Below are positions 1 through 57,838 of a stretch of DNA of 64,000 nucleotides, in pieces (position 1 is the stretch's first letter; every line of letters starts with the position of its first letter). This stretch comes from an uncultured Candidatus Saccharibacteria bacterium. GTDB lineage: Bacteria; Patescibacteriota; Doudnabacteria; UBA920. A program made the position numbers and the translations under genes. The stretch lies in the NCBI GenBank assembly GCA_964505635.1, contig CAZDIP010000001.1:222412-286411 (forward strand), in the 5' to 3' direction. The notes beneath the pieces are model-generated. The model did no database searches, was not told where the DNA came from, and was given only the letters and a program-made list of their open reading frames with translations.

Positions 1-1182
1 ATTTTAGTGCTGGCTAGTGAAGAAAGAGCAGGGGAGAAAGCACAACAAGTTGCCAATAAAATTAAACATAAGTACCAAACCGAATTTTTTAAACTTTTCA
101 TTACCGCGCACCCTGACGGATTAGAAGGTGAAATAAAAGGCAAAAGCGCTAATGCCAGCTATGCTGTAAAATCCATGCTGCCAATTTTAGATAATTTAGG
201 CATTAACCATGAGCATGTTTTGGTTTCCAATTTTGACTCCGACACAATTATTCACCCTCAATATTTTGCCAGAGTCATGTACGAATTTATATTTTCTGAC
301 AAGCCTTACCAAAAAAGCTATCAACCGATAGCAATATACAACAACAATATCTGGGACAGTCCGGCTATTGTCCGAGTCGTAAGCGTTTCTAACTCTTTTT
401 GGCAATTTACCGAAAGTTCCAGACCGGATCGGTTAAGAACTTTTTCTTCCCATACAATGACTTTAAAGGCGTTAAAAGAGGTGGGTTTTTGGAAAAAAGA
501 CATTGTTAATGAAGATGGTTATATTTATTGGCAGTGTTATTTGCATTATGAAGGCGACTACGGGGTGGTGCCGTTATTTATCCCCATAAGCCTAGATACC
601 TGTTTGGCTCAAACAACCTGGGAAACCTTAAAAAATCAATATAAACAAAAAAGACGCTGGGCTTATAATGTCGAATACTATCCCCATTTAATTATGCCTT
701 TGCTCAAAAGTAAGGCTCCTTTACACGACAGGCTCTATAAACTGTTTCAATACATGGAAGGTAATTTTAACTGGGCCACTGCCAGCTTGATGATTTCAAC
801 TTTAGGGTGGATGCCCTTGCTTATTGGTGGAAGTGATTTTAGAAACAGCGTAGTAGGTTTTAATCTGCCGCTTATGACAAAAACCCTTATGAATACTGCG
901 CTGGTTTTTTTAATCTTTAGTGTTTATATTAATATGATTCTATTGCCCCCCAGGCCAAAAAAATACGGCAAAAGCAAAACCATTGCCATGTATTTACAAT
1001 GGTTTTTGGTGCCTTTAACTTCGGTGGTTTTTGGGAGCTTACCGGCTATTGAAGCCCAAACCCGACTTATGCTAGGAAAATATTTAGAATTTTGGGTCAC
1101 TCCCAAAGCCCGCAAAGGGGAAAATACAGCGTTGTCTATGAAAGAAATGCAGTCAGCTTCAGACTTAAAAATTAGTCAATGA
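1..1182 (+). CDS. Family 2 glycosyltransferase (processive, cellulose/chitin-synthase-like), 5'-truncated at window edge, C-terminal multi-TM region
   Basis: The reading frame is open to nt 1. It has a DxD (NFDSDT), a TED-like (VNEDGY) and a QxxRW (QKRRW) motif, followed by hydrophobic C-terminal helices. Confidence 0.7.
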   Translation: MLVLASEERAGEKAQQVANKIKHKYQTEFFKLFITAHPDGLEGEIKGKSANASYAVKSMLPILDNLGINHEHVLVSNFDSDTIIHPQYFARVMYEFIFSDKPYQKSYQPIAIYNNNIWDSPAIVRVVSVSNSFWQFTESSRPDRLRTFSSHTMTLKALKEVGFWKKDIVNEDGYIYWQCYLHYEGDYGVVPLFIPISLDTCLAQTTWETLKNQYKQKRRWAYNVEYYPHLIMPLLKSKAPLHDRLYKLFQYMEGNFNWATASLMISTLGWMPLLIGGSDFRNSVVGFNLPLMTKTLMNTALVFLIFSVYINMILLPPRPKKYGKSKTIAMYLQWFLVPLTSVVFGSLPAIEAQTRLMLGKYLEFWVTPKARKGENTALSMKEMQSASDLKISQ

Positions 1183-2255
1183 GGTATCTTATTTTTTTCA
1201 CGTTAAGTTTTATTTCTTCAGCCTTACTAACCCACTGGGTCAGAAAACTGGCTTACAAATTTAATATTCTTGATCTTCCGAATGCAAACAGAAAAATCCA
1301 CAAAAAACCCATACCTTTGTTAGGAGGGTTGGGTATATTTGGATCCTTCTTTTTTATTGTATTTCTATATTTAATTTACAGTAAAGTGGATTTTTCAATT
1401 ATCCCCTTAAAATATTTTTACGGGATTTTGCTGGGGGGTGCTGTTTTAATAACCGGGGGAGCAATGGACGATAAATTTAACCTTCCCGCAAAAATCACCT
1501 GGATATTTCCAGCTCTGGCAAGCCTGATTGCCATTTATTTTGGCATAGGCGGCAATCTTACACAAATTTCTAATCCATTTGGGGGCGTGATTGATTTTAA
1601 TTTAACCCTGAACCTATTTAACTTTATAAATTTCAGTCTTGGATGGTTGGTGGTTTTTTTATGGTTAATGGGTATGATTTACACAACCAAATTCCTTGAT
1701 GGTTTAGACGGCTTAAGCAGCGGAATAAGTTTGATTGGCGGACTTACCTTGTTTGCGCTTTCATTGCTGCCGCATATCAATCAAAATATTACGGCAAGTT
1801 TAGCCATAATTTTTTGTGGAACCTTGGCAGGTTTTTTAATTTTTAACTTTCATCCAGCCTCAATTTTCTTAGGCGAAGGGGGAAGCACTTTACTGGGCTT
1901 TATTCTTGGTATACTTTCAATTATTCTAGGCGGAAAAATAGCTACCGCCCTTTTAGTAATGGGTATTCCCATACTTGATGTGGCCTGGGTTATTACAAGA
2001 CGGATTTGGTATAAAGGCAGTCCCTTTAAGGCCGACCGCAAACATTTACATTTTAGGTTACTGGATTTGGGATTTTCCCAACCTCAAGCCGTTGGAATAC
2101 TATGGTCAATATCCGGAATTTTTGGCTTTATGGCCATATTTTTACAATCTAAGGGTAAACTGATAGCTTTGGGCGGGGTTTTTGTAGTCATGCTGATTTT
2201 AGCTATTTCAGTCGTCTTGCTGTACAAACATAAGCATCCGTACATTGAAAAATAA
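1179..2255 (+). CDS. WecA/MraY-family polyprenyl-phosphate N-acetylhexosamine-1-phosphate transferase
   Basis: A polytopic membrane protein with the PIPLLGGLGIF, DDKFNL and NFINF...DGLDGLS motifs typical of the MraY/WecA family. Its start overlaps the upstream GT2 stop. Confidence 0.7.
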   Translation: MRYLIFFTLSFISSALLTHWVRKLAYKFNILDLPNANRKIHKKPIPLLGGLGIFGSFFFIVFLYLIYSKVDFSIIPLKYFYGILLGGAVLITGGAMDDKFNLPAKITWIFPALASLIAIYFGIGGNLTQISNPFGGVIDFNLTLNLFNFINFSLGWLVVFLWLMGMIYTTKFLDGLDGLSSGISLIGGLTLFALSLLPHINQNITASLAIIFCGTLAGFLIFNFHPASIFLGEGGSTLLGFILGILSIILGGKIATALLVMGIPILDVAWVITRRIWYKGSPFKADRKHLHFRLLDLGFSQPQAVGILWSISGIFGFMAIFLQSKGKLIALGGVFVVMLILAISVVLLYKHKHPYIEK

Positions 2256-49844: not shown

Positions 49845-50399
49845 TTATTTCACAATCTTTCTTAAAATTTCCGCCTCAATCCTGCAGTCGGTAAGACCGT
49901 CGTGGCGGCTTTGGGACTTAATTTTAAACTTCCGCATTAAATCTTCCAAACTAAATCCGGTAAATTTTTTATTATTTTTAAGCTGGTTTTTTAAAGCCAA
50001 ATGCGCATAAAAAAACGCCCAAAGGTTAAAGTAGTGGTAATCAAACTGCCATTTTAAATTATGTTTATAGTAGGCGGCCCGTAAAAAATCCATATCCACG
50101 GGCCCGCCGTAATAGCTTAAAATTACCCGCTGGGGATTAAACTGTTTGTTAAATTCTTTTAGTACATCTTTAAGCGGGGGAGCGGCATTTAGCCATTCTT
50201 TTTTTACGCCATTTATCCGCATAGACTCCCTGTCTCTTAACTGCCATTTAAGAGGTTTTATGTAAGCATTAAAAACCGCTTTTTCGTTTAAAGTCTTTTT
50301 GTCTAAAAGCACGGCCGAAAGCTGAATTATTTCCTGCCGAAAAGAGTCCAGGCCTGTGGTTTCCAGATCTACCAGTAATAAATCTTTATAAAAATTCAT
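49845..50399 (-). CDS. DEDDh 3'-5' exonuclease (DnaQ/RNase T-like), catalytic residues intact
   Basis: It has Exo I DLETTG, Exo II GGPVDMDFL and Exo III HDGLTD. Confidence 0.7.
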   Translation of the reverse strand: MNFYKDLLLVDLETTGLDSFRQEIIQLSAVLLDKKTLNEKAVFNAYIKPLKWQLRDRESMRINGVKKEWLNAAPPLKDVLKEFNKQFNPQRVILSYYGGPVDMDFLRAAYYKHNLKWQFDYHYFNLWAFFYAHLALKNQLKNNKKFTGFSLEDLMRKFKIKSQSRHDGLTDCRIEAEILRKIVK

Positions 50400-50400
50400 A

Positions 50401-50937
50401 TCAAGCTTCTTTAATTATTTTTCTAAATATTTCGGCCTCAAGGCGCACTTTTTCCATTGCATCGTTTGGATGTTTTTGCTTTAAATTAAAATGGTCTAAA
50501 AATGTATTAAAGGTAGGCATTTTTTTTAAACCGTAATTTAATGTGTAAATATACCCCAAGGTCCATAGCTCTATAACATGGGAACCATAGTCAAACGGCA
50601 CCAAGGCTTTTTTAAATGCGGCCTTTAAAAACAAGATATTGGCCACATTATGGGTTGCCAATAAAAAATTACTGCCCAATTTATTGTGAAATTGTTTTAC
50701 TACATCGTAGACTTTTGCGCTTTTTTTTAAAACATTATATTCAATTCCAAGCAATTTGGAATGCTGATTTATAACGGCATCCAAATAACTTACTCGCACA
50801 AACGAATTGAAGTTGGCCTTTTCCAAAAGATTGTCTTTATCAAGCAGAACTGCTGAAAGCTGGATAACCGAATCCTTATCGGTGTCCTGTCCGGTTGTGG
50901 TAACTTCAAAAAATAATAGATCTTTAATAAATTTCAT
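50401..50937 (-). CDS. DEDDh exonuclease paralog with degenerate active site (likely inactive)
   Basis: It is parallel to the neighbouring gene, but Exo I reads FFEVTTTG (D to E, E to T) and Exo II reads HNVANILFL (terminal D lost). The start is taken at MKFIKDLL. Confidence 0.55.
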   Translation of the reverse strand: MKFIKDLLFFEVTTTGQDTDKDSVIQLSAVLLDKDNLLEKANFNSFVRVSYLDAVINQHSKLLGIEYNVLKKSAKVYDVVKQFHNKLGSNFLLATHNVANILFLKAAFKKALVPFDYGSHVIELWTLGYIYTLNYGLKKMPTFNTFLDHFNLKQKHPNDAMEKVRLEAEIFRKIIKEA

Positions 50938-51015
50938 AAGCAGTAATCTCAAATATACAAATCTTTCCAAATATACAAATTTAAATGCATTGCCTGATTT
51001 GTATATTTGCGAACA

Positions 51016-51509: not shown

Positions 51510-51932
51510 TTATACTATTTGCGGATCAGACGGTTCATCCTCAACTTCAACACCGCCTAAAAAAGTAATATCTCCTTCTTGTATTTGATCTGCCGCCCCT
51601 GAATTCCAACCAGGCGGATTTTCAAAATTCGATTCTTTTTTTTCTTTCTCATTAATTTTTTTTTCCATATTATTTTTCTTAATTAAATAAGCAAAAAGTT
51701 TACCTGGGGTTTGGGCATTTTTATTTTCCAAAATTTCTCCCATCAATTTTCTTAAAAAATTATGATCGTAAGTTACTGCCATTTTTAAATAAAAACCAAA
51801 ATGTTTTTTGTCATTCAACTTAACGCTAAGCTCTTCGGCCAGTAAATGAGCAGGGGAGTGGAGATATTTATTTGCCTTAGATTTTTTTTGTACTCTTTCC
51901 GAGGCTTTGGCAATTTTACCTAGAGATTCCAT
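51510..51932 (-). CDS. Hypothetical protein
   Basis: A 140-aa ORF that is Lys/Glu-rich, with no motifs. Confidence 0.35.
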   Translation of the reverse strand: MESLGKIAKASERVQKKSKANKYLHSPAHLLAEELSVKLNDKKHFGFYLKMAVTYDHNFLRKLMGEILENKNAQTPGKLFAYLIKKNNMEKKINEKEKKESNFENPPGWNSGAADQIQEGDITFLGGVEVEDEPSDPQIV

Positions 51933-52000
51933 AATCGGATTATATACGATTTAATTAAAAAAAGCTATTAAAACCCGCGGTTTTAAGCTATAATTGCTTT

Positions 52001-53311
52001 ATGACCACATTTGAAGTTGCCGAACTTAAAATTACCGCGATAACAAAAGCAGAATTTCTTACAACAGTTTTGCGGCGAATTAAAAATAACCAAAAAACCT
52101 GGGTTACCACTTTATACTCTGAATTTTTATATGCATCTATAAAAGACAAAAAAAATCTTGAGATGCTAAATAAAGCAGATATAGCCCTGCCTGACGGCAT
52201 TGGTATTTTTTGGGCACATAAATTTTTAAGCTTGTCCTTAAGTGCAAAGTCACGTTACGGCAAAATTTTACAAGGCCTGTGGCAGGTATTGGTTACTCTA
52301 TATAAATTTTCGCTTCCCGAAGCTTTTGGAGGAACCAAGGGAGAAATTAGCGGATCAAGAGAACGGATCCCCGGCTCAGAACTTATTTGGGATTTGGCAA
52401 GACTTGCGCAAGAAAATAACCTTTCAATTTATCTATTAGGGGGATTTGGCAATACGCCGAAGCTTGCGGCAAATACTCTAATATCTAAATATCCCGATAT
52501 TCAAATTGCCGGATATTCTACTAAAAACCCTGATGATAAAGATATTATTGCAGATCTAAAATCGGCAAATCCCGACATTCTCCTTGTTGCCTACGGCCCT
52601 ATAAGGCAAGAGGCCTGGATATATGCAAATCTAAACAATTTGCCCGCTAAACTGGTTATTGGCCTTGGAGGCACTTTTGATTATTTGGCCAAAAAACGCC
52701 TAAAAGCGGCCAAATTTATAAGCCATGCGGGCTTTGAATGGCTATTTAGATTAATTACCCAGCCTTACAGGCTGAAACGGATTTTCCAGGCCACCTTAGG
52801 TTTAATAGCACTCTTAGCGGAATACAAACTTTTTAACAGCTTGCCCTACAGGCAAAACGCGGTAGCTGTAATTATTAACAAGCAACGTAAAATTTTCGTC
52901 GGACTAAGGAATGAAAAAAATAAACAAGACGACAAACAACCTCACTGGCAATTGCCGCAGGGAGGAATTGAGGAAGGCGAGGATTTCATGCAGGCGGCAA
53001 AAAGAGAAGCTTTGGAGGAAACCGGCATAACTTCTTTAAAATTTATTTTTAAATCAGCCAGTCAAAATTCTTACCTCTGGCCTTTAGGCCATAGCAAAAA
53101 ATATAAAGGCCAGAATCAGCATATTTTTTACTTTTTGTTTACCGGACAGGAAACGGAAGTTAATTTGCATTACCACGACTCGCATGAATTTATGAGTTAT
53201 AAGTGGATCGGACCGGATAAACTATACGAGACTATCCATGACTACAGAAAAAACTTGATAAAAATAGTATTAAACGATTTGAAGGAAATGTCACAAAAAG
53301 CTATAATATAA
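52001..53311 (+). CDS. Fusion protein: WecG/TagA-family (GT26) glycosyltransferase + C-terminal Nudix hydrolase
   Basis: The N-terminal ~250 aa carry the GT26 hallmarks (LPDGIGIFWA, AYGPIRQE). The C-terminal ~150 aa carry a Nudix box GGIEEGEDFMQAAKREALEETGI. Confidence 0.6.
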   Translation: MTTFEVAELKITAITKAEFLTTVLRRIKNNQKTWVTTLYSEFLYASIKDKKNLEMLNKADIALPDGIGIFWAHKFLSLSLSAKSRYGKILQGLWQVLVTLYKFSLPEAFGGTKGEISGSRERIPGSELIWDLARLAQENNLSIYLLGGFGNTPKLAANTLISKYPDIQIAGYSTKNPDDKDIIADLKSANPDILLVAYGPIRQEAWIYANLNNLPAKLVIGLGGTFDYLAKKRLKAAKFISHAGFEWLFRLITQPYRLKRIFQATLGLIALLAEYKLFNSLPYRQNAVAVIINKQRKIFVGLRNEKNKQDDKQPHWQLPQGGIEEGEDFMQAAKREALEETGITSLKFIFKSASQNSYLWPLGHSKKYKGQNQHIFYFLFTGQETEVNLHYHDSHEFMSYKWIGPDKLYETIHDYRKNLIKIVLNDLKEMSQKAII

Positions 53312-53345: not shown

Positions 53346-54875
53346 TTGTCAATTTTTATGGTTCGTACCCGCTTCGCTCCCTCACCAACCGGTTTCGTAC
53401 ACATTGGCAGCTTAAGAACTGCCTTATTTTCCTATTTATTTGCTAGGCATAACCATGGCAAACACCTGTTGCGGATTGAGGACACTGACCAAAATCGCTA
53501 CGTTAAGGGTGCGGTGGAAAATTTACTCAAGGTAATGAGCCGGGTGGGTATTGAATTTGATGAGGGTTATTATTTAAACTCAAAAGGAGAACTGGAAGAA
53601 AAAGGGGGATATGCCCCTTATTTGCAATCCAAACGTCTAAGCATTTACCAAACAGCCGCCCAAAAATTAATTGCTGAAAAGAAGGCTTATTATTGCTTTT
53701 GCAGCCAAGAACGCCTAGATGAATTGCGCAAAGAACAGATGGCTTTAAAAAAACCAGCCATGTATGACCGCCTTTGCCGTAATTTAACCCCTGCTCAGAT
53801 AGAATCCAAGCTTAAAGAAATGCGAGATCAAAAAAAATCTCCGGTAATCCGTTTTGCCATTCCTTTGGAGGGCGAAACTACAGTAAATGATCTGATTTAT
53901 GGAAAAATTACCTATGATCACAAAGTTTTGGATGACCAAGTAATTATAAAATCAGACGGCTTTCCAACCTATCACTTAGCAGTAGTAGTAGACGACCACG
54001 AAATGCAAATTTCCCATGTTATCCGCGGCGAAGAATGGTTGCCCTCTACCCCCAAACACATTTTAATTTACAAGGCTTTTGGCTGGCAGCCCACAGCCTT
54101 TGCCCACTTGCCTTTAATTTTAAACTCTGACAAGTCCAAACTTTCCAAAAGACAGGGTGATGTAGCGGTTGAAGATTTTTTAGCCGACGGTTATTTAAAA
54201 GAAGCCTTAATAAACTTTGTCGCTTTTTTGGGTTGGAACCCAAAAACTTCGCAGGAAATTTTTAGCATTGAGCAGCTGGTTGAAGAATTTGACTTAAGCA
54301 AGGTTAACAAATCTGGGGCAGTATTTGATACAAACAAACTGGACTGGCTAAACAGCCAATACATTAGACAAATGGGTATTGCCGAGCTCACGAATTTGCT
54401 TCTGCCTTTTTGGCAAAAATATTGGACTGAAAAAAATATTATTTTTGATAAAACAGCCTTAACGCACAAATATTTTGAAAAGATTGCGGAATTAGAAAAA
54501 GACAGATTAAAAAAACTTTCTGAAATAGGGGAGAGTACCGAGTATTTTTTTGTTTTGCCTGATTATTTAAACGAGCTTCTGGTTTGGAAAAAATCAAACC
54601 GTGAAAAAACAAAAGAAATTTTAGATCAACTAATTAAAATGTTTAGCGGTTTTGAATTAAAAAATTTTAATAAGAAAGTTTTGGAGCCAAAATTAAAAGA
54701 ATTTATTGTTGAAAAAAATTTAGATAACGGTTCGGTTTTGTGGCCTCTCAGAGTCGCCCTTACGGGCCTAGAAAAAAGTCCGGGTCCTTTTGAAGTGGCG
54801 GAGGTTTTAGCCTTTGGTTTGGGAAAAGAAGAAATACTTTCCCGCTTAAATATGGCCATAAAAAAATTACAATAA
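53346..54875 (+). CDS. gltX: Glutamyl-tRNA synthetase
   Basis: It has HIGH-type PSPTGFVHIGSLRTA, KLSKRQG (KMSKS) and a C-terminal anticodon-binding domain. Confidence 0.9.
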   Translation: MSIFMVRTRFAPSPTGFVHIGSLRTALFSYLFARHNHGKHLLRIEDTDQNRYVKGAVENLLKVMSRVGIEFDEGYYLNSKGELEEKGGYAPYLQSKRLSIYQTAAQKLIAEKKAYYCFCSQERLDELRKEQMALKKPAMYDRLCRNLTPAQIESKLKEMRDQKKSPVIRFAIPLEGETTVNDLIYGKITYDHKVLDDQVIIKSDGFPTYHLAVVVDDHEMQISHVIRGEEWLPSTPKHILIYKAFGWQPTAFAHLPLILNSDKSKLSKRQGDVAVEDFLADGYLKEALINFVAFLGWNPKTSQEIFSIEQLVEEFDLSKVNKSGAVFDTNKLDWLNSQYIRQMGIAELTNLLLPFWQKYWTEKNIIFDKTALTHKYFEKIAELEKDRLKKLSEIGESTEYFFVLPDYLNELLVWKKSNREKTKEILDQLIKMFSGFELKNFNKKVLEPKLKEFIVEKNLDNGSVLWPLRVALTGLEKSPGPFEVAEVLAFGLGKEEILSRLNMAIKKLQ

Positions 54876-54951: not shown

Positions 54952-56322
54952 ATGTTTTCTTTTTCTGAAACAAAAATTTTAAGACAAAAGCCCGAGTCCG
55001 ACAAAAAAAAACTTTTGGGCGTGCTTTTGTTTTTTATAATGATATTCTTTGGCTCCAACCTGCTGGTTTTAGCTCAACAAGAATCGCCGACAGCGGAAAA
55101 AAATACGCCTGATCCCAATGTAGAAAAGCTTAACAGCCAAAGGGATCAAAACCAAAAAAAGTTGGAAGAGCTGAACAAACAAATTAAAAATTTTACCCAG
55201 CAAATTCAGGAAACTCAAAAAAAATCCAGCTCCCTGCAAAATGAATTGTTTATTTATGAAAGACAGATAGCCACCACACAATTGCAAATTGAAGCTAAAC
55301 AAACCCAAATAGAAGACACCGGATTGCAAATTACTGAGCTACAAAAACTTATAGAACAACGCTCCAGCGACATAGCGGAAAACAAAAAAATTCTGGCTCA
55401 ACTAATAATCCAATTAAACGAGTTTGATGCGGCTTATGGACTTAAAGCCACGATCGGTTCAGATAATTTGTCAGATTTCCTGGATCAAATACAATATACA
55501 CAAAACTTTCAGGAAAAAATTTACCAGCTTGTCCAGCGAATCAAAGAAATAAAAGCGCGCCTGGAAAAACAACAAGCTGAACTTAAAATTCATTTAGAAA
55601 ATTTAAAGGAGCTGCAAAATCAGCTGGAGATCGCCAAGGAATCTTTAAACGTTCAAAGAAGTCAAAAGCAACAGCTTTTAAACCAAACACGCGGGGTGGA
55701 ACGTAACTTTCAAAAACTTTTGGCTGCAAGCAAAAAAGAACAGGACGACCTGCAGAAAGAAATTGCGGATTTGGACGCCCAAATCAGAGAAAAGCTGGGT
55801 AAAAAAACTATTGCTGCTCAAAAAGGAGTCTTAGCCTGGCCAATGGATGGTATTCTTACTCAAAAATACGGAAATACCGGATTTACTGCTTTAGGCTATA
55901 ACTTTCATAATGGAATTGACGTAGCGGCCCCGGCGGCTCAGCCTATATACGCCGCTGCGGATGGTGAAATTATTAACACAGACTCCAGTAACCAATCATT
56001 CGGCAATTGGGTAGCTATTATACACTATATTTCCACAAAAAAAGGCTCAAGTCAAATTATAACTATGTATGCTCAAATGCGAAGCTTTAGAGTCATGGTT
56101 GGACAAGAGGTATCCCAGGGTGACTTAATTGGCTACGAAGGCAATACCGGAAATACCACGCGTAAATTATACGGCCCAGAAAGAGGGTATCATATTCATT
56201 TCGGCGTGTACGATGCGGAGGGTTTCGGCGTAAATCCCGGTAAATATTCAAACATTTACGGGGCCTATAAAGTGCCTTATGGCTATACTTATAACCCCAT
56301 GGACTTTCTGGGCAGCGAATAA
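54952..56322 (+). CDS. M23-family peptidase with N-terminal coiled-coil (EnvC/LytM-like)
   Basis: It has an N-terminal TM helix and long coiled-coil, then an M23 domain (HNGIDVAAP...HIHFGVY). Confidence 0.75.
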   Translation: MFSFSETKILRQKPESDKKKLLGVLLFFIMIFFGSNLLVLAQQESPTAEKNTPDPNVEKLNSQRDQNQKKLEELNKQIKNFTQQIQETQKKSSSLQNELFIYERQIATTQLQIEAKQTQIEDTGLQITELQKLIEQRSSDIAENKKILAQLIIQLNEFDAAYGLKATIGSDNLSDFLDQIQYTQNFQEKIYQLVQRIKEIKARLEKQQAELKIHLENLKELQNQLEIAKESLNVQRSQKQQLLNQTRGVERNFQKLLAASKKEQDDLQKEIADLDAQIREKLGKKTIAAQKGVLAWPMDGILTQKYGNTGFTALGYNFHNGIDVAAPAAQPIYAAADGEIINTDSSNQSFGNWVAIIHYISTKKGSSQIITMYAQMRSFRVMVGQEVSQGDLIGYEGNTGNTTRKLYGPERGYHIHFGVYDAEGFGVNPGKYSNIYGAYKVPYGYTYNPMDFLGSE

Positions 56323-56327
56323 AAAAC

Positions 56328-57386
56328 ATGAAAACTAAAATAAAAAAATATTTTCTTATTATCAGTCTTTTGCAACTTTGTTTGGTTTGGGCTAATTTTG
56401 CCTTCGCTCAAACAGGCGCCACGGACGATGCCGACTCACCCGACTACCGTCAATTTAAAGTGGAAGAGAGCATAAAAAAATATTTATGCACCCCTTCGGA
56501 AGCCAACGTAACACAACCCGGTTATAACGATTTATACCCCGATAACGCCCAAAACCAAGCCAGCGGAGATTTATACAACTGTATTAATCGTCTATATAAA
56601 TTTGCCATTGCCATTGGCACGAGCATTGGGGTATTTTTTATAGTTTTAGCAGGCTATGTTTATATTGATGCGGGCGGAAACGAAGAATCAATAACAAAAG
56701 CTAAAAGTATCTTAACCAGTACTATTGCGGCCATGGTTATTTTATTTTCAGGTTATATTTTACTTAAAGCTATTAACCCTGAGTTAGTACAATTTAAACC
56801 TATCCAACCTAAAAGCATTCTAAACCTTACCGTGCCGACGGAAAGCCAAAATACAAACAACCAATACTCCACGCCGCTTAGCAATAACTTAAAAGAAGCG
56901 GCTCAAAAAATTTTAAACTTAGATGGCAAAGGCATAAATATAAATAAAACATCATGCGATTGTACAAACAACTGCCCAATTAACACCCTTCAAAGCATAG
57001 CAGCCGGCAATCTACCGCAAAAAGACGGCAGTGGCAGCAGTTGCAATACAGGAAAAGTTTCTGACGTAAGCCTAAGCATGCTAAATGCTATTTTATACGC
57101 CCAAAGCCTGGGTTCTAATTTTAATTTAGGTTCCATAACCGGTGGGCACCACAGTCAAGACAGTCTTCATTACCAGGGCAAAGCTTTGGACGTTACCCCA
57201 ATACCGCAAGTTAGTAATGAGCAATCAAAATTAGTTGCAGCCCTCAGATCCAGCGGAGCAAAAATAATAGCTTTGGAATGCTTGTTAAATGGTTCTAACC
57301 AATATTTAATTTTTGGTAAAGACGTAAATGATTCAGACCCAAGATGCATGGGCAAACCAAATTACCATATACACGCCTCTTGGTAA
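56328..57386 (+). CDS. Secreted M15-family (VanY-like) D-Ala-D-Ala peptidase-like protein
   Basis: It has a signal/TM segment and the zinc motif SLHYQGKALD (SxHxxGxAxD) with a downstream HIH. Confidence 0.6.
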   Translation: MKTKIKKYFLIISLLQLCLVWANFAFAQTGATDDADSPDYRQFKVEESIKKYLCTPSEANVTQPGYNDLYPDNAQNQASGDLYNCINRLYKFAIAIGTSIGVFFIVLAGYVYIDAGGNEESITKAKSILTSTIAAMVILFSGYILLKAINPELVQFKPIQPKSILNLTVPTESQNTNNQYSTPLSNNLKEAAQKILNLDGKGININKTSCDCTNNCPINTLQSIAAGNLPQKDGSGSSCNTGKVSDVSLSMLNAILYAQSLGSNFNLGSITGGHHSQDSLHYQGKALDVTPIPQVSNEQSKLVAALRSSGAKIIALECLLNGSNQYLIFGKDVNDSDPRCMGKPNYHIHASW

Positions 57387-57838
57387 CAAGCTAATCTCAT
57401 TTACCCATATAGCTTTAATGTTAAATATATACCGACCCTTTTAGGGTCGGTTTTAATTTAAAAGAAAACTCCCCTGTTTAATCTACCAAAAAGGGGAGAG
57501 CAATACACATATGCGATTATTTATTTAATTTGTACTTTTAAATTTGCACGATAAAGAATTTTAAAAAGTAAATACTTATTATTTACTTTAATAACTAAAA
57601 CTAAAATAGGTGGTATTCATAAAACTGATAAATAATAATATCAATTAAAAAAGTTTAAGTTGCTTAATAGGCGAATGCTTATCTTAATTATAAGCACATT
57701 GATACCAGTTAATATGACAAGAGTAAAATCTTTATATTATATTCTATGTCGCACAAGGTACATTGTGCGACATAATAGATATTTCAAAATTTGCTTTTCC
57801 CCACCCAGCTTTGTTTAGCTGGACTTTACTTCACCTTA

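Follow-up and report, generated by a model that had tools for sequence, protein, structure and literature searches.

The closest described relative of the N-terminal half of the protein considered here is TagA/TarA of Thermoanaerobacter italicus (5WB4, 5WFG, 7MPK, 7N41), in which N39 is a ligand of the ManNAc 3′-OH, R221 and R224 bind the UDP diphosphate, and the C-terminal tail is a membrane-binding element (PMC8784642, the source of all TagA residue roles used below). For the C-terminal half, the nearest described enzymes are E. coli RppH (NudH/YgdP) and the asymmetric Ap4A hydrolase of plant/alphaproteobacterial type, as in Lupinus angustifolius (1F3Y/1JKN; IalA/InvA group). RppH binds NDPs and NTPs, which are slow substrates, and forms a hydrogen bond to pyrimidines through S32 of its cleft (PMC7144940, from which the roles of the RppH residues are taken). 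Complexes of RppH with DapF have been structurally solved (4S2Y, 6D13, 6D1Q, 6VCK; PMC6061855). The Ap4A hydrolases of the lupin group are standalone, acidic and soluble, with a V-x-F-K cleft. UDP-sugar pyrophosphatases form a separate Nudix clade (PMC5389931), and GDP-mannose mannosyl hydrolase (Gmm/WcaH/NudD), which is linked to polysaccharide synthesis within a surface-glycan cluster, belongs to another clade, cleaves at the sugar carbon (PMC5389931) and has no glycosyltransferase fusion. A search of a literature library found no paper describing a fusion of a GT26 glycosyltransferase with a Nudix domain, in line with the initial annotation, which had regarded the fusion as uncharacterised, and the one paper on the candidate phyla radiation (CPR) found to mention TagO deals with the host's gene.

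In the window, i.e. the whole 64 kb stretch of DNA analysed, these two types of enzyme are encoded by a single open reading frame on the forward strand. The frame starts with ATG, is continuous and contains no internal stops. Residues 1–262 correspond to a GT26 (WecB/TagA/CpsF) glycosyltransferase and residues 283–436 to a canonical Nudix hydrolase. The gene and its parts are as follows:

52001..53311, + strand: fused ORF, GT26 glycosyltransferase plus RppH-type Nudix, 436 aa plus stop
52001..52228, + strand: GT26 core, N-terminal part (aa 1–76), with T37, the motif Y39-S40-E41-F42 and D65-G66
52229..52360, + strand: family-specific 44-aa insert (aa 77–120) in the TagA H4–H5 loop, a gap against TagA residues 76/82
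52361..52705, + strand: GT26 core, C-terminal part (aa 121–235), with G147-G148, R202-Q203 and D227
52706..52846, + strand: TagA-type C-terminal tail, with E246, W247, R250, R257 and R260
52847..53308, + strand: RppH/NudH-type Nudix domain (aa 283–436), from profile, structure and residue matches
52961..53029, + strand: Nudix box (aa 321–343), a strict match to GX5EX7REUXEEXGU

Both domain calls of the initial annotation were upheld by matches above curated cutoffs. Pfam Glyco_tran_WecG (PF03808) covers residues 120–261 (E = 2.6e-39, 135 bits against a cutoff of 27.4), and NUDIX (PF00293) covers residues 283–414 (E = 2.2e-19, 70 bits against a cutoff of 21). Moreover, the GT26 family profile TIGR00696 (wecG_tagA_cpsF) scored 106 bits, with a cutoff of 69. 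The motifs quoted earlier, LPDGIGIFWA and AYGPIRQE, are present and contain D65 and Q203, respectively, and the description of the Nudix box as canonical holds under the strict pattern. An AF2 model of the whole protein has a pLDDT of 93.7 and a pTM of 0.89.

Foldseek comparison of this model with TagA (7MPK/5WB4) gave a target TM of 0.91 and an rmsd of 2.2–2.5 Å, so that the GT26 half is assigned to the TagA (GT-E) fold, at a sequence identity of ~24%. D65 is the equivalent of the TagA catalytic base, Q203 of Q167, R202-Q203 of K166-Q167 and D227 of D191. In the tail, E246, W247, R250, R257 and R260 correspond to TagA E210, W211, R214, R221 and R224, with the pattern E-W-x2-R...R-x2-R common to both proteins. 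Equivalents of TagA D65, Q167, D191, E210, W211, R214, R221 and R224 are kept in 104/104 homologues. The GT26 half has the complete TagA catalytic set: the Asp base, the Gln and Asp in contact with the UDP-sugar and, in the tail that closes over the UDP diphosphate, Glu-Trp and three Arg. The peripheral-membrane, metal-independent inverting mechanism on a polyprenyl-PP-HexNAc acceptor is presumably the same as in TagA/TarA.

The differences from TagA/TarA, apart from the Nudix extension at the C-terminus, concern sugar recognition and the H4–H5 loop. Where TagA reads T-P-N-A-E, the fused protein has Y39-S40-E41-F42 after T37. The TagA N39 position is Tyr in 104/104 long-form sequences, while 10/11 short-form fusions have Asn there. 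Only half of the ligand pair behind TagA/TarA sugar specificity is kept, namely Q167 (as Q203). The scores obtained with the NCBIfam equivalog models for TarA (NF041710, 94.7 bits against a cutoff of 350) and WecG (NF002980, 71.4 bits against 323) fell far below their cutoffs. Because the Asn that reads the ManNAc 3′-OH is replaced by an invariant Tyr, a UDP-sugar different from UDP-ManNAc probably serves as donor, and the general expectation that GT26 enzymes use UDP-ManNAc(A)-type donors may not hold here. The position of the uracil-stacking Tyr137 also varies in the fused family. The 44-aa insert is modelled as an amphipathic helix at 85–104 followed by a disordered stretch at 110–120; W94/Q95 are near-invariant among the homologues, and the short-form fusions lack the insert altogether. 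Positions q80–89, near the beginning of the insert, show constraint in fused forms but are relaxed or deleted in Nudix-less forms, and distal junction-helix positions are likewise constrained in fused forms only, although both comparisons are confounded by phylogeny.

The Nudix box, GGIEEGEDFMQAAKREALEETGI, is the sole strict Nudix box in the window. For the domain as a whole, the RppH equivalog model NF001938 (NCBIfam) was passed marginally, by 3 bits (119.2 bits against a cutoff of 116), and the other four RppH equivalog models scored below their cutoffs. The best match among PDB sequences was the lupin Ap4A hydrolase 1F3Y (E about 2e-18 to 2.8e-19, 35% identity over the domain), with which the motifs YR-N, WQ-PQGG, GQ-Q and EF--W-W are shared. 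E. coli RppH is also among the closest PDB sequences and superimposes with a target TM of 0.84 at ~24% identity; the subfamily fold, the Mg2+ and phosphate ligands and the basic charge are held in common. Gmm (1RYA), also of Nudix fold, is a distant match (target TM 0.57, 19% identity), and UDP-glucose/UDP-sugar Nudix hydrolases were absent among the NCBIfam, PDB-sequence and Foldseek matches. As a word-indexed homologue search with the Nudix domain alone gave 5 weak matches, an exhaustive search of representatives was used instead.

At the residue level, R284, N286, Q320, E336, E339 and E340 correspond to E. coli RppH R8, N10, Q37, E53, E56 and E57, and Y358, Q371, Q373, E396 and R416 to Y77, Q95, Q97, E120 and K140. 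Equivalents of RppH R8, N10, Q37, E53, E57, Q95, Q97 and E120 are kept in 104/104 homologues, those of E56 and Y77 in 103/104, and the K140 position is R or K in all 104; single substitutions (E339G, E327 variants) are seen in a few members. The base cleft differs from that of RppH. The window protein has H413 and Y415 where RppH has V137 and F139, and across the 104 sequences the RppH cleft is not retained, with V137 replaced by H in 95/104, F139 by E in 72/104 and S32 by Y in 81/104, while the R27 position is R in 78/104. The resulting H-P-E-R cleft of the fused domain also differs from the V-x-F-K of the Ap4A hydrolases. An H-P-x-R variant occurs in standalone Nudix genes unrelated to glycosyltransferases as well, e.g. 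one flanked by genes for a T2SS ATPase and RecJ (P0174). Fused Nudix domains are basic (median pI 8.7), as is E. coli RppH (9.65), whereas acidic standalone relatives have a pI of 5.4; this contrast would favour a Nudix that binds polyanions, but CPR proteomes are basic in general, which confounds the comparison and keeps it from being decisive.

Profile, fold and residue matches together place the Nudix half in the branch of RppH and the plant and bacterial Ap4A hydrolases, and not in that of the UDP-sugar hydrolases. Since the nucleobase cleft for the second RNA nucleotide is changed, recognition of RNA or Ap4A may differ from that in E. coli RppH. The roles suggested by the initial annotation, hydrolysis of released UDP or of a nucleotide-sugar and proofreading of the lipid-PP intermediate, keep their place as possibilities but are not the default reading, because the domain is of RppH/NudH type (NF001938, 1F3Y and RppH matches) and the UDP-sugar clade is a separate one.

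The two halves are rigidly joined. In the AF2 model, one continuous helix (aa 255–279), the end of the TagA tail, runs without a linker into the first Nudix strand, with a pLDDT of 96–98 across the junction. A spacing of 24 residues between R260 and R284 is found in 104/104 long-form sequences; a mixed alignment of short and long forms shows it in 12/14 rows. The distal part of the tail helix (aa 261–279) is very hydrophobic (mean Kyte–Doolittle 1.17) with a low hydrophobic moment. The ~25-residue helix has an active-site anchor residue at either end, which would put the two ~35 Å apart if the helix is straight. Simple tethering to the membrane would not require a rigid junction whose length stays invariant down to 28% identity; this hints that the Nudix domain is directly coupled, functionally or allosterically, to the site of the glycosyltransferase.

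The fusion is a widespread CPR architecture and not a rare one. Both Pfam domains are present in each of the 120 best homologues, which measure about 425–530 aa and were drawn from independent NCBI, JGI, ENA and Logan assemblies. Among GTDB species representatives, at least 503 relatives were found, and both domains are in one ORF at 57/79 loci. Several CPR lineages are represented, namely Doudnabacteria, Falkowbacteria and the Parcubacteria group, and the short-form fusions, at 28–38% identity, come under the names Falkowbacteria, Parcubacteria or Patescibacteria. Public records name the fused proteins only “WecB/TagA/CpsF family glycosyltransferase”, an annotation that conceals half of the protein. 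As to whether the fusion is conserved or split in relatives, a point raised by the initial annotation, the answer is fused in these 57 representative loci and in all best homologues, and split once. In the latter case (L087), the only true split form among the loci examined, the GT26 gene ends in a stop codon and is followed by a ~150 nt spacer, a separate Nudix gene and then gltX. Two apparent standalone Nudix genes were rejected as truncated or mis-called fused genes, P0141 being open to the contig edge through FKVFRSMPYR and P0131 having a GT26 tail in-frame directly upstream. P0126, which sits on a contig of 1 kb, is ambiguous and was not accepted as a split form.

About 20 relatives have no Nudix domain. 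These forms are clean: at most loci no more than ~60 bp separate the GT26 stop codon from the start of gltX, and no remnant of a Nudix domain is present. In a crude neighbour-joining tree of the GT26 part they are nested among the fused forms, and the GT26 catalytic set is unchanged where Nudix is lost.

The genomic setting was assigned from the following features of the window:

1179..2255, + strand: Glycos_transf_4 protein closest to WecA (WecA 99 bits, below the 326 cutoff; MraY 50 bits)
51907..51935, + strand: promoter-like site, 10/12 consensus matches, weak and consensus-only
53346..54875, + strand: gltX (glutamate–tRNA ligase), 34 bp downstream of the fused ORF with no terminator between
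54952..56322, + strand: coiled-coil M23 peptidase (EnvC/DipM-like), third operon gene, conserved in 66/80 loci
56328..57386, + strand: T4SS-pilin-like membrane protein, fourth operon gene, conserved in 52/80 loci
57431..57451, no strand: strong bidirectional terminator-like hairpin, 9 bp stem with 6 GC pairs

The fused gene heads a conserved operon of GT26-Nudix, gltX, M23 peptidase and pilin-like protein, and is not part of a glycan cluster. The promoter-like site sits in a 68-bp divergent intergenic region upstream of the fused ORF, and the hairpin is the first after the four-gene block. gltX is the next gene in 74/80 loci, and it comes after the short-form, split and Nudix-less versions as well; the conserved neighbourhood comprises gltX, the M23 peptidase gene and def/fmt/exonuclease genes. 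The GT2 and WecA-like genes to which the initial annotation had linked the fusion are real (at 7–2255), but they lie 50 kb away, unclustered with the fused gene, and none similar was found within 8 kb in 79 related loci, so that a glycan cluster with these genes was rejected. The product of the WecA-like gene is a candidate maker of the polyprenyl-PP-HexNAc acceptor.

As a whole, the observations are tentatively attributed to a membrane-held Nudix domain of RppH/NudH type joined to a GT26 linkage-unit enzyme. We rate this explanation slightly below an even balance, and with it the view of the gene product as a genuine bifunctional peripheral-membrane enzyme characteristic of Patescibacteria (CPR). 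The GT26 half would add the second sugar to the polyprenyl-PP-HexNAc primer of a cell-wall glycopolymer linkage unit, the primer being made by a WecA/TagO-like enzyme. The Nudix half would be catalytically active, most likely with the ancestral RppH/NudH chemistry, i.e. removal of terminal phosphate or pyrophosphate from 5′-polyphosphorylated RNA ends, Np4-capped RNA or free (di)nucleoside polyphosphates. The fusion may have been born from neighbouring operon genes, and would keep the Nudix domain on the inner side of the membrane, in an unchanging position beside the glycosyltransferase. Turnover of nucleotides or RNA ends could in this way be tied to envelope synthesis, by analogy with E. 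coli RppH and its physical association with DapF, an enzyme of the cell wall; in the fused protein the two partners are covalently linked, with GT26 in the place of DapF. The glycosyltransferase itself would be independent of Nudix, since Nudix has been lost repeatedly. Conversely, it is possible, if doubtful, that the rigid helix reflects real catalytic or allosteric coupling, with a repurposed RppH-derived Nudix acting on UDP, a UDP-sugar, a polyprenyl-PP intermediate or UDP-sugar-capped RNA, or with an alarmone-gated glycosyltransferase. For the activity of the Nudix domain, a membrane-held RppH/NudH-type function is the best guess, and hydrolysis of UDP or UDP-sugars its main rival.

According to this rival, which we consider rather unlikely, the Nudix domain is mechanistically integrated and, beside the GT26 site, breaks down by hydrolysis either the UDP that is formed (UDP to UMP + Pi) or excess UDP-sugar donor, thereby relieving product inhibition or setting flux, as Golgi nucleoside diphosphatases do for glycosyltransferases. 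The helix that carries R257/R260, the equivalents of the UDP-diphosphate-binding TagA R221/R224, does continue into the Nudix domain with invariant spacing, but its two anchor residues would be the above ~35 Å apart. E. coli RppH binds and slowly hydrolyses NDPs and NTPs, contacts pyrimidines through S32 (PMC7144940) and has its cleft remodelled in the fused family with H, E and Y; the H-P-x-R cleft is, however, shared with standalone Nudix genes such as P0174, known UDP-sugar Nudix hydrolases form a clade apart from the closest relatives (Ap4A hydrolases and RppH), and the polyphosphate-binding residues suited to chains of at least three phosphates are all retained. The fusion is kept down to 28% identity across CPR lineages, and fused forms alone show constraint at positions near the beginning of the GT26 insert and on the distal junction helix, a pattern confounded by phylogeny. 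Against this stand the many clean losses of Nudix in which the GT26 catalytic set is unchanged.

Some Nudix enzymes hydrolyse isoprenoid diphosphates, and the domain could act on a lipid-linked diphosphate at the membrane surface, converting undecaprenyl-PP to Und-P + Pi at the cytoplasmic face or acting on an aberrant polyprenyl-PP-sugar in proofreading or recycling. The very hydrophobic distal part of the tail helix (aa 261–279) leads straight into the Nudix domain, and because this tail is a membrane-binding element in TagA (PMC8784642), R284/N286 should sit near the bilayer; given the high pLDDT, however, the helix is perhaps simply packed between the two domains. Loss of the hydrophobic nucleobase pedestal would fit this reading, but the residues that take its place are polar or charged (His, Glu) and not lipid-friendly, and the nucleotide contacts of the Y77 and R27 type are retained. 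As the domain moreover lacks sequence or fold similarity to prenyl-diphosphate Nudix enzymes and has its best matches in nucleotide-binding RppH and Ap4A hydrolases, we regard this reading as improbable.

About as little credit is given to a Nudix domain that is a non-catalytic sensor of an alarmone such as Ap4A or (p)ppGpp and regulates glycopolymer priming by gating closure of the TagA tail. A rigid link of fixed length to the tail helix that must close over the donor would suit such a sensor, and RppH-type domains bind (p)ppGpp and NTPs. However, the complete or near-complete conservation of all catalytic glutamates and Mg2+ ligands across 104 sequences favours catalysis over binding alone, the few single substitutions mentioned above (E339G, E327 variants) notwithstanding. 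Finally, an artefact joining two genes by frameshift or misassembly, for which the separate halves in L087 might be adduced, can be practically dismissed in view of hundreds of independent assemblies with a single ORF and an indel-free junction (120/120 homologues, 57/79 loci and identical junction length in 104/104), the continuous frame in the window and the junction pLDDT of 96–98.

The preferred reading, a membrane-held RppH/NudH-type Nudix joined to GT26, bears on a group that makes up a large share of bacterial diversity. The CPR/Patescibacteria have minimal genomes, and their envelope biochemistry is almost uncharacterised experimentally. Because the GT26 enzyme is encoded in one of the most conserved CPR housekeeping operons, usually as one chain with an RppH-type pyrophosphatase, the fused protein is a candidate core component of cell-wall glycopolymer synthesis. 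It is likewise a candidate for a natural “Rosetta-stone” connection that joins nucleotide or RNA-end metabolism to the making of the envelope, an echo of the RppH–DapF pair of E. coli. If the Nudix domain acts on UDP, UDP-sugars or lipid-PP, it would constitute a new mode of control for a lipid-linked glycosyltransferase, and if catalytic or allosteric coupling is real, an undescribed glycosyltransferase–Nudix control module would be near-universal in CPR cell-envelope synthesis. If, on the other hand, the Nudix domain is the organism's RppH, a membrane-anchored start of RNA decay would be built into a cell-wall enzyme.

The uninterrupted 436-aa reading frame at 52001-53311 (+) is matched by the Pfam profiles Glyco_tran_WecG (aa 120-261, E = 2.6e-39) and NUDIX (aa 283-414, E = 2.2e-19). 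In NCBIfam it exceeds the cutoff of the GT26 superfamily model, and its C-terminal half scores 119.2 bits against the RppH equivalog NF001938 (cutoff 116). The match to the Nudix box pattern at aa 321-343 is strict, and no other strict box occurs within the 64 kb window. Thus, the initial annotation described the domain content accurately. The possibility it raised of a frameshift or assembly error joining two genes is excluded by homologues of the same architecture in independent assemblies: the best 120 matches in a collection of 5.8 billion proteins, from NCBI, JGI, ENA and Logan assemblies, all measure ~425-530 aa and contain the two Pfam domains. A scan in which each GTDB species was represented by a single genome found at least 503 relatives, and separate HMMs for each half, run against 79 fetched loci, placed both domains within one ORF in 57. 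The junction also speaks against an artefact, as the spacing from R260 to R284 is exactly 24 residues in 104/104 aligned family members. In an AF2 model built from the family alignment (pLDDT 93.7, pTM 0.89) the glycosyltransferase domain passes into the first strand of the Nudix domain through one helix, aa 255-279; the link between the two is rigid. The last five residues, QKAII (53294-53308), are modelled at high confidence, and many of the 104 aligned long-form sequences end in EKAII (17), EKGII (12) or the variants KKTII, QKGII, KKAII and QKAII. This conserved pentapeptide could act as a tag for docking or for degradation.

The solved protein nearest to the N-terminal half in sequence and fold is TagA/TarA (7MPK, E = 4e-26; Foldseek target TM 0.91). 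Structural and mutational work on TagA identified D65 as the probable base, N39 and Q167 as ManNAc-specific ligands, Y137 as stacking on the uracil, D191 as a ribose contact, and E210, W211, R214, R221 and R224 as part of a C-terminal tail closing over the donor (PMC8784642). The equivalents of D65, Q167, D191, E210, W211, R214, R221 and R224 are invariant across 104 homologues. In contrast, N39 is replaced by Tyr in 104/104, inside a T-x-Y-S-E-F motif, and the flexible H4-H5 loop of the family, unlike that of TagA, carries an insert of 44 residues (aa 77-120) that forms an amphipathic helix and then a disordered segment. As the GT26 half also widely misses the NCBIfam TarA and WecG equivalog cutoffs, the protein is a GT26 enzyme whose catalytic apparatus is intact but which is not assignable as a TagA orthologue. 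The sugar donor is likely other than UDP-ManNAc.

Among solved proteins, the Nudix half is best matched in sequence by lupin Ap4A hydrolase (1F3Y, E = 2.8e-19) and then by E. coli RppH, for which fold comparison gave a target TM of 0.84. With residue roles taken from PMC7144940, the equivalents of RppH R8, N10, Q37, E53, E56, E57, Y77, Q95, Q97 and E120 are 99-100% conserved in 104 homologues, the K140 position is R or K without exception, and the R27 position is Arg in 78/104. Strong purifying selection acts on both catalytic centres of the fused protein. The cleft in which RppH sandwiches the second nucleotide of the RNA (PMC7144940) is altered relative to the E. coli enzyme, with His for V137 (95/104), Glu for F139 (72/104) and Tyr for S32 (81/104). 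This H-P-x-R variant is not exclusive to the fusion, as it is present in some standalone Nudix proteins, one of them encoded between a T2SS ATPase and RecJ on a contig of non-CPR appearance. Fused Nudix domains are basic, whereas standalone relatives are acidic. Nudix hydrolases of UDP-sugars are a clade of their own (PMC5389931), and none occurred among the matches of the Nudix half.

The exhaustive Nudix-domain search (3032 matches at E<=1e-3) uncovered a second GT26-Nudix class of ~390-420 aa, with a complete Pfam WecG profile, a canonical T-P-N-P-E motif and no insert. A search seeded with one of these short forms brought up chiefly fused proteins, 28-38% identical and carrying the labels Patescibacteria, Parcubacteria group and Falkowbacteria. 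The junction is shared: in an alignment of 11 short-form and 3 long-form fusions it measures 24 residues in 12/14 rows and 25 in the other two. Conservation in relatives, for which the initial annotation contemplated fused or split genes, is partial, as the same insert-bearing GT26 stops where the domain ends in 22 of the 79 loci. Of these 22, 20 have gltX directly behind, mostly within ~60 bp (192 and 274 bp in two), with no detectable Nudix remnant; the remaining two are cut by contig ends. The GT26 enzyme does not need the Nudix domain, which is dispensable. A crude, phylogenetically confounded NJ tree of the GT26 domain places the fused short forms at its base and the Nudix-less forms, as two clades and about ten singletons, among fused ones, which implies repeated Nudix loss. 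A similarly crude and confounded site comparison of fused and unfused forms highlights q80-89 and q270-271. A true split was found on one metagenomic contig (L087), where ~150 nt containing several stops in frame lie between the stop codon at the GT26 3' end and a separate Nudix gene, and gltX comes next. Two other seemingly standalone Nudix matches proved to be truncated fused genes. At one of these, L086:241-723 (Nudix match P0131, Logan SRR28385528), a GT26 tail lies in-frame directly upstream of the Nudix and a stop codon breaks the GT26 core farther upstream; either this low-coverage contig contains a sequencing error or the glycosyltransferase half of the fused gene is decaying. The simplest history starts from an ancestral GT26, nudix and gltX operon, in which the fusion took place early in the evolution of CPR and was followed by domain losses. 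Regarding taxonomy, the label "uncultured Candidatus Saccharibacteria" on many loci appears to be a generic TPA label. Two typical CPR-type loci with the order LigT, GT26, gltX come from MAGs assigned to non-CPR phyla (L075, JBLMZH010000049.1, Acidobacteriaceae; L079, DASPNG010000043.1, Binatia), most likely through bin contamination rather than horizontal transfer.

The next gene downstream is gltX in 74/80 loci, followed by a coiled-coil M23 peptidase (66/80) and a T4SS-pilin-like membrane protein (52/80). Upstream and divergent lie a 140-aa protein, def, two exonucleases, fmt and YceG/MltG. The features concerned are:

49845-50399 (-), RNase_T/DnaQ-like 3'-5' exonuclease, first of two tandem paralogues between def and fmt (the pair conserved in 58/80 loci)
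50401-50970 (-), second tandem paralogue
51510-51932 (-), divergent 140-aa protein, positionally conserved in 50/80 loci
56328-57386 (+), fourth operon gene, with a T4SS-pilin-like transmembrane segment (PF18895)
57431-57451, first strong terminator-like site, after the fourth gene

The 140-aa protein has no Pfam or NCBIfam match. The profile match of the second exonuclease is weak and incomplete, and this copy may be degenerate. The C-terminal region of the fourth gene product shows a faint Hedgehog-N/LAS-metallopeptidase-like match (HH_signal, E = 0.01), and the product may be a membrane-anchored cell-wall peptidase. No terminator-like site is found in the 34-bp gap ahead of gltX in the window, and the order GT26-Nudix, gltX, M23 is retained at a short-form fusion whose Nudix is 35% identical to that of the window. 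The surroundings are those of housekeeping and cell-wall remodelling rather than of a polysaccharide cluster. Genes for a GT2 and a WecA-like enzyme, which the initial annotation placed in one pathway with the fused gene, are present but 50 kb distant, and do not form a cluster with it; the WecA-like enzyme could plausibly provide the acceptor lipid.

A LigT-like 2H phosphoesterase (PF02834/PF13563), from a family of RNA-end or cyclic-phosphate enzymes, lies directly upstream of GT26 on the same strand in 10/22 Nudix-less loci (L066, L069, L071, L072 and L074-L079; e.g. L069:3773-4375), and in only 2/57 fused loci (L048, L057). This could reflect lineage synteny or a second RNA-end enzyme tied to this GT26. 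A 923-aa leucyl-tRNA synthetase-like protein (P0193, ENA contig of 20969 bp), comprising a tRNA-synt_1 N-terminal part and a LeuRS editing domain, has three RppH-like Nudix domains embedded. Aminoacyl-tRNA synthetases are known Ap4A producers, and both this protein and the near-universal adjacency of Nudix and gltX hint that such synthetases and this Nudix type are repeatedly linked. A close standalone RppH-type Nudix (L080:6001-6489, P0133, GCA_964327615.1; 43% identity) shares 4 bp with the end of an operon of gpmI, M23 peptidase, CtpB-like S41 protease and YibQ-like deacetylase; proximity to an EnvC-like M23 peptidase thus recurs outside CPR too.

At the cytoplasmic face of the membrane, the GT26 half would probably attach the second linkage-unit sugar to polyprenyl-PP-HexNAc. 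For the Nudix half we tentatively prefer retained RppH/NudH chemistry, based on the subfamily assignment with its complete polyphosphate-ligand set, the basic charge of the fused domains, and the repeated loss of the Nudix with GT26 unchanged. The main rival, hydrolysis of UDP or a UDP-sugar beside the GT26 site, is rather unlikely, given a Nudix half that matches no UDP-sugar hydrolases; still, it draws on the invariant junction length, the UDP-diphosphate-binding Arg pair on the connecting helix, the remodelled nucleobase cleft and the NDPase activity measurable in E. coli RppH. Hydrolysis of lipid-PP is improbable for a domain with this RppH-type ligand set, and so is a purely regulatory sensor, with the catalytic centre so conserved. 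Under RppH/NudH chemistry, the Nudix domain would hydrolyse 5'-polyphosphorylated or Np4-capped RNA ends, or free dinucleoside polyphosphates, and fusion would place the domain at the membrane and couple it stoichiometrically to envelope synthesis, in parallel to the structurally solved E. coli RppH-DapF complex (PMC6061855). In summary, this is a widespread uncharacterised architecture assembled from two well-known families, and its interest would be higher if the two activities turn out to be coupled.
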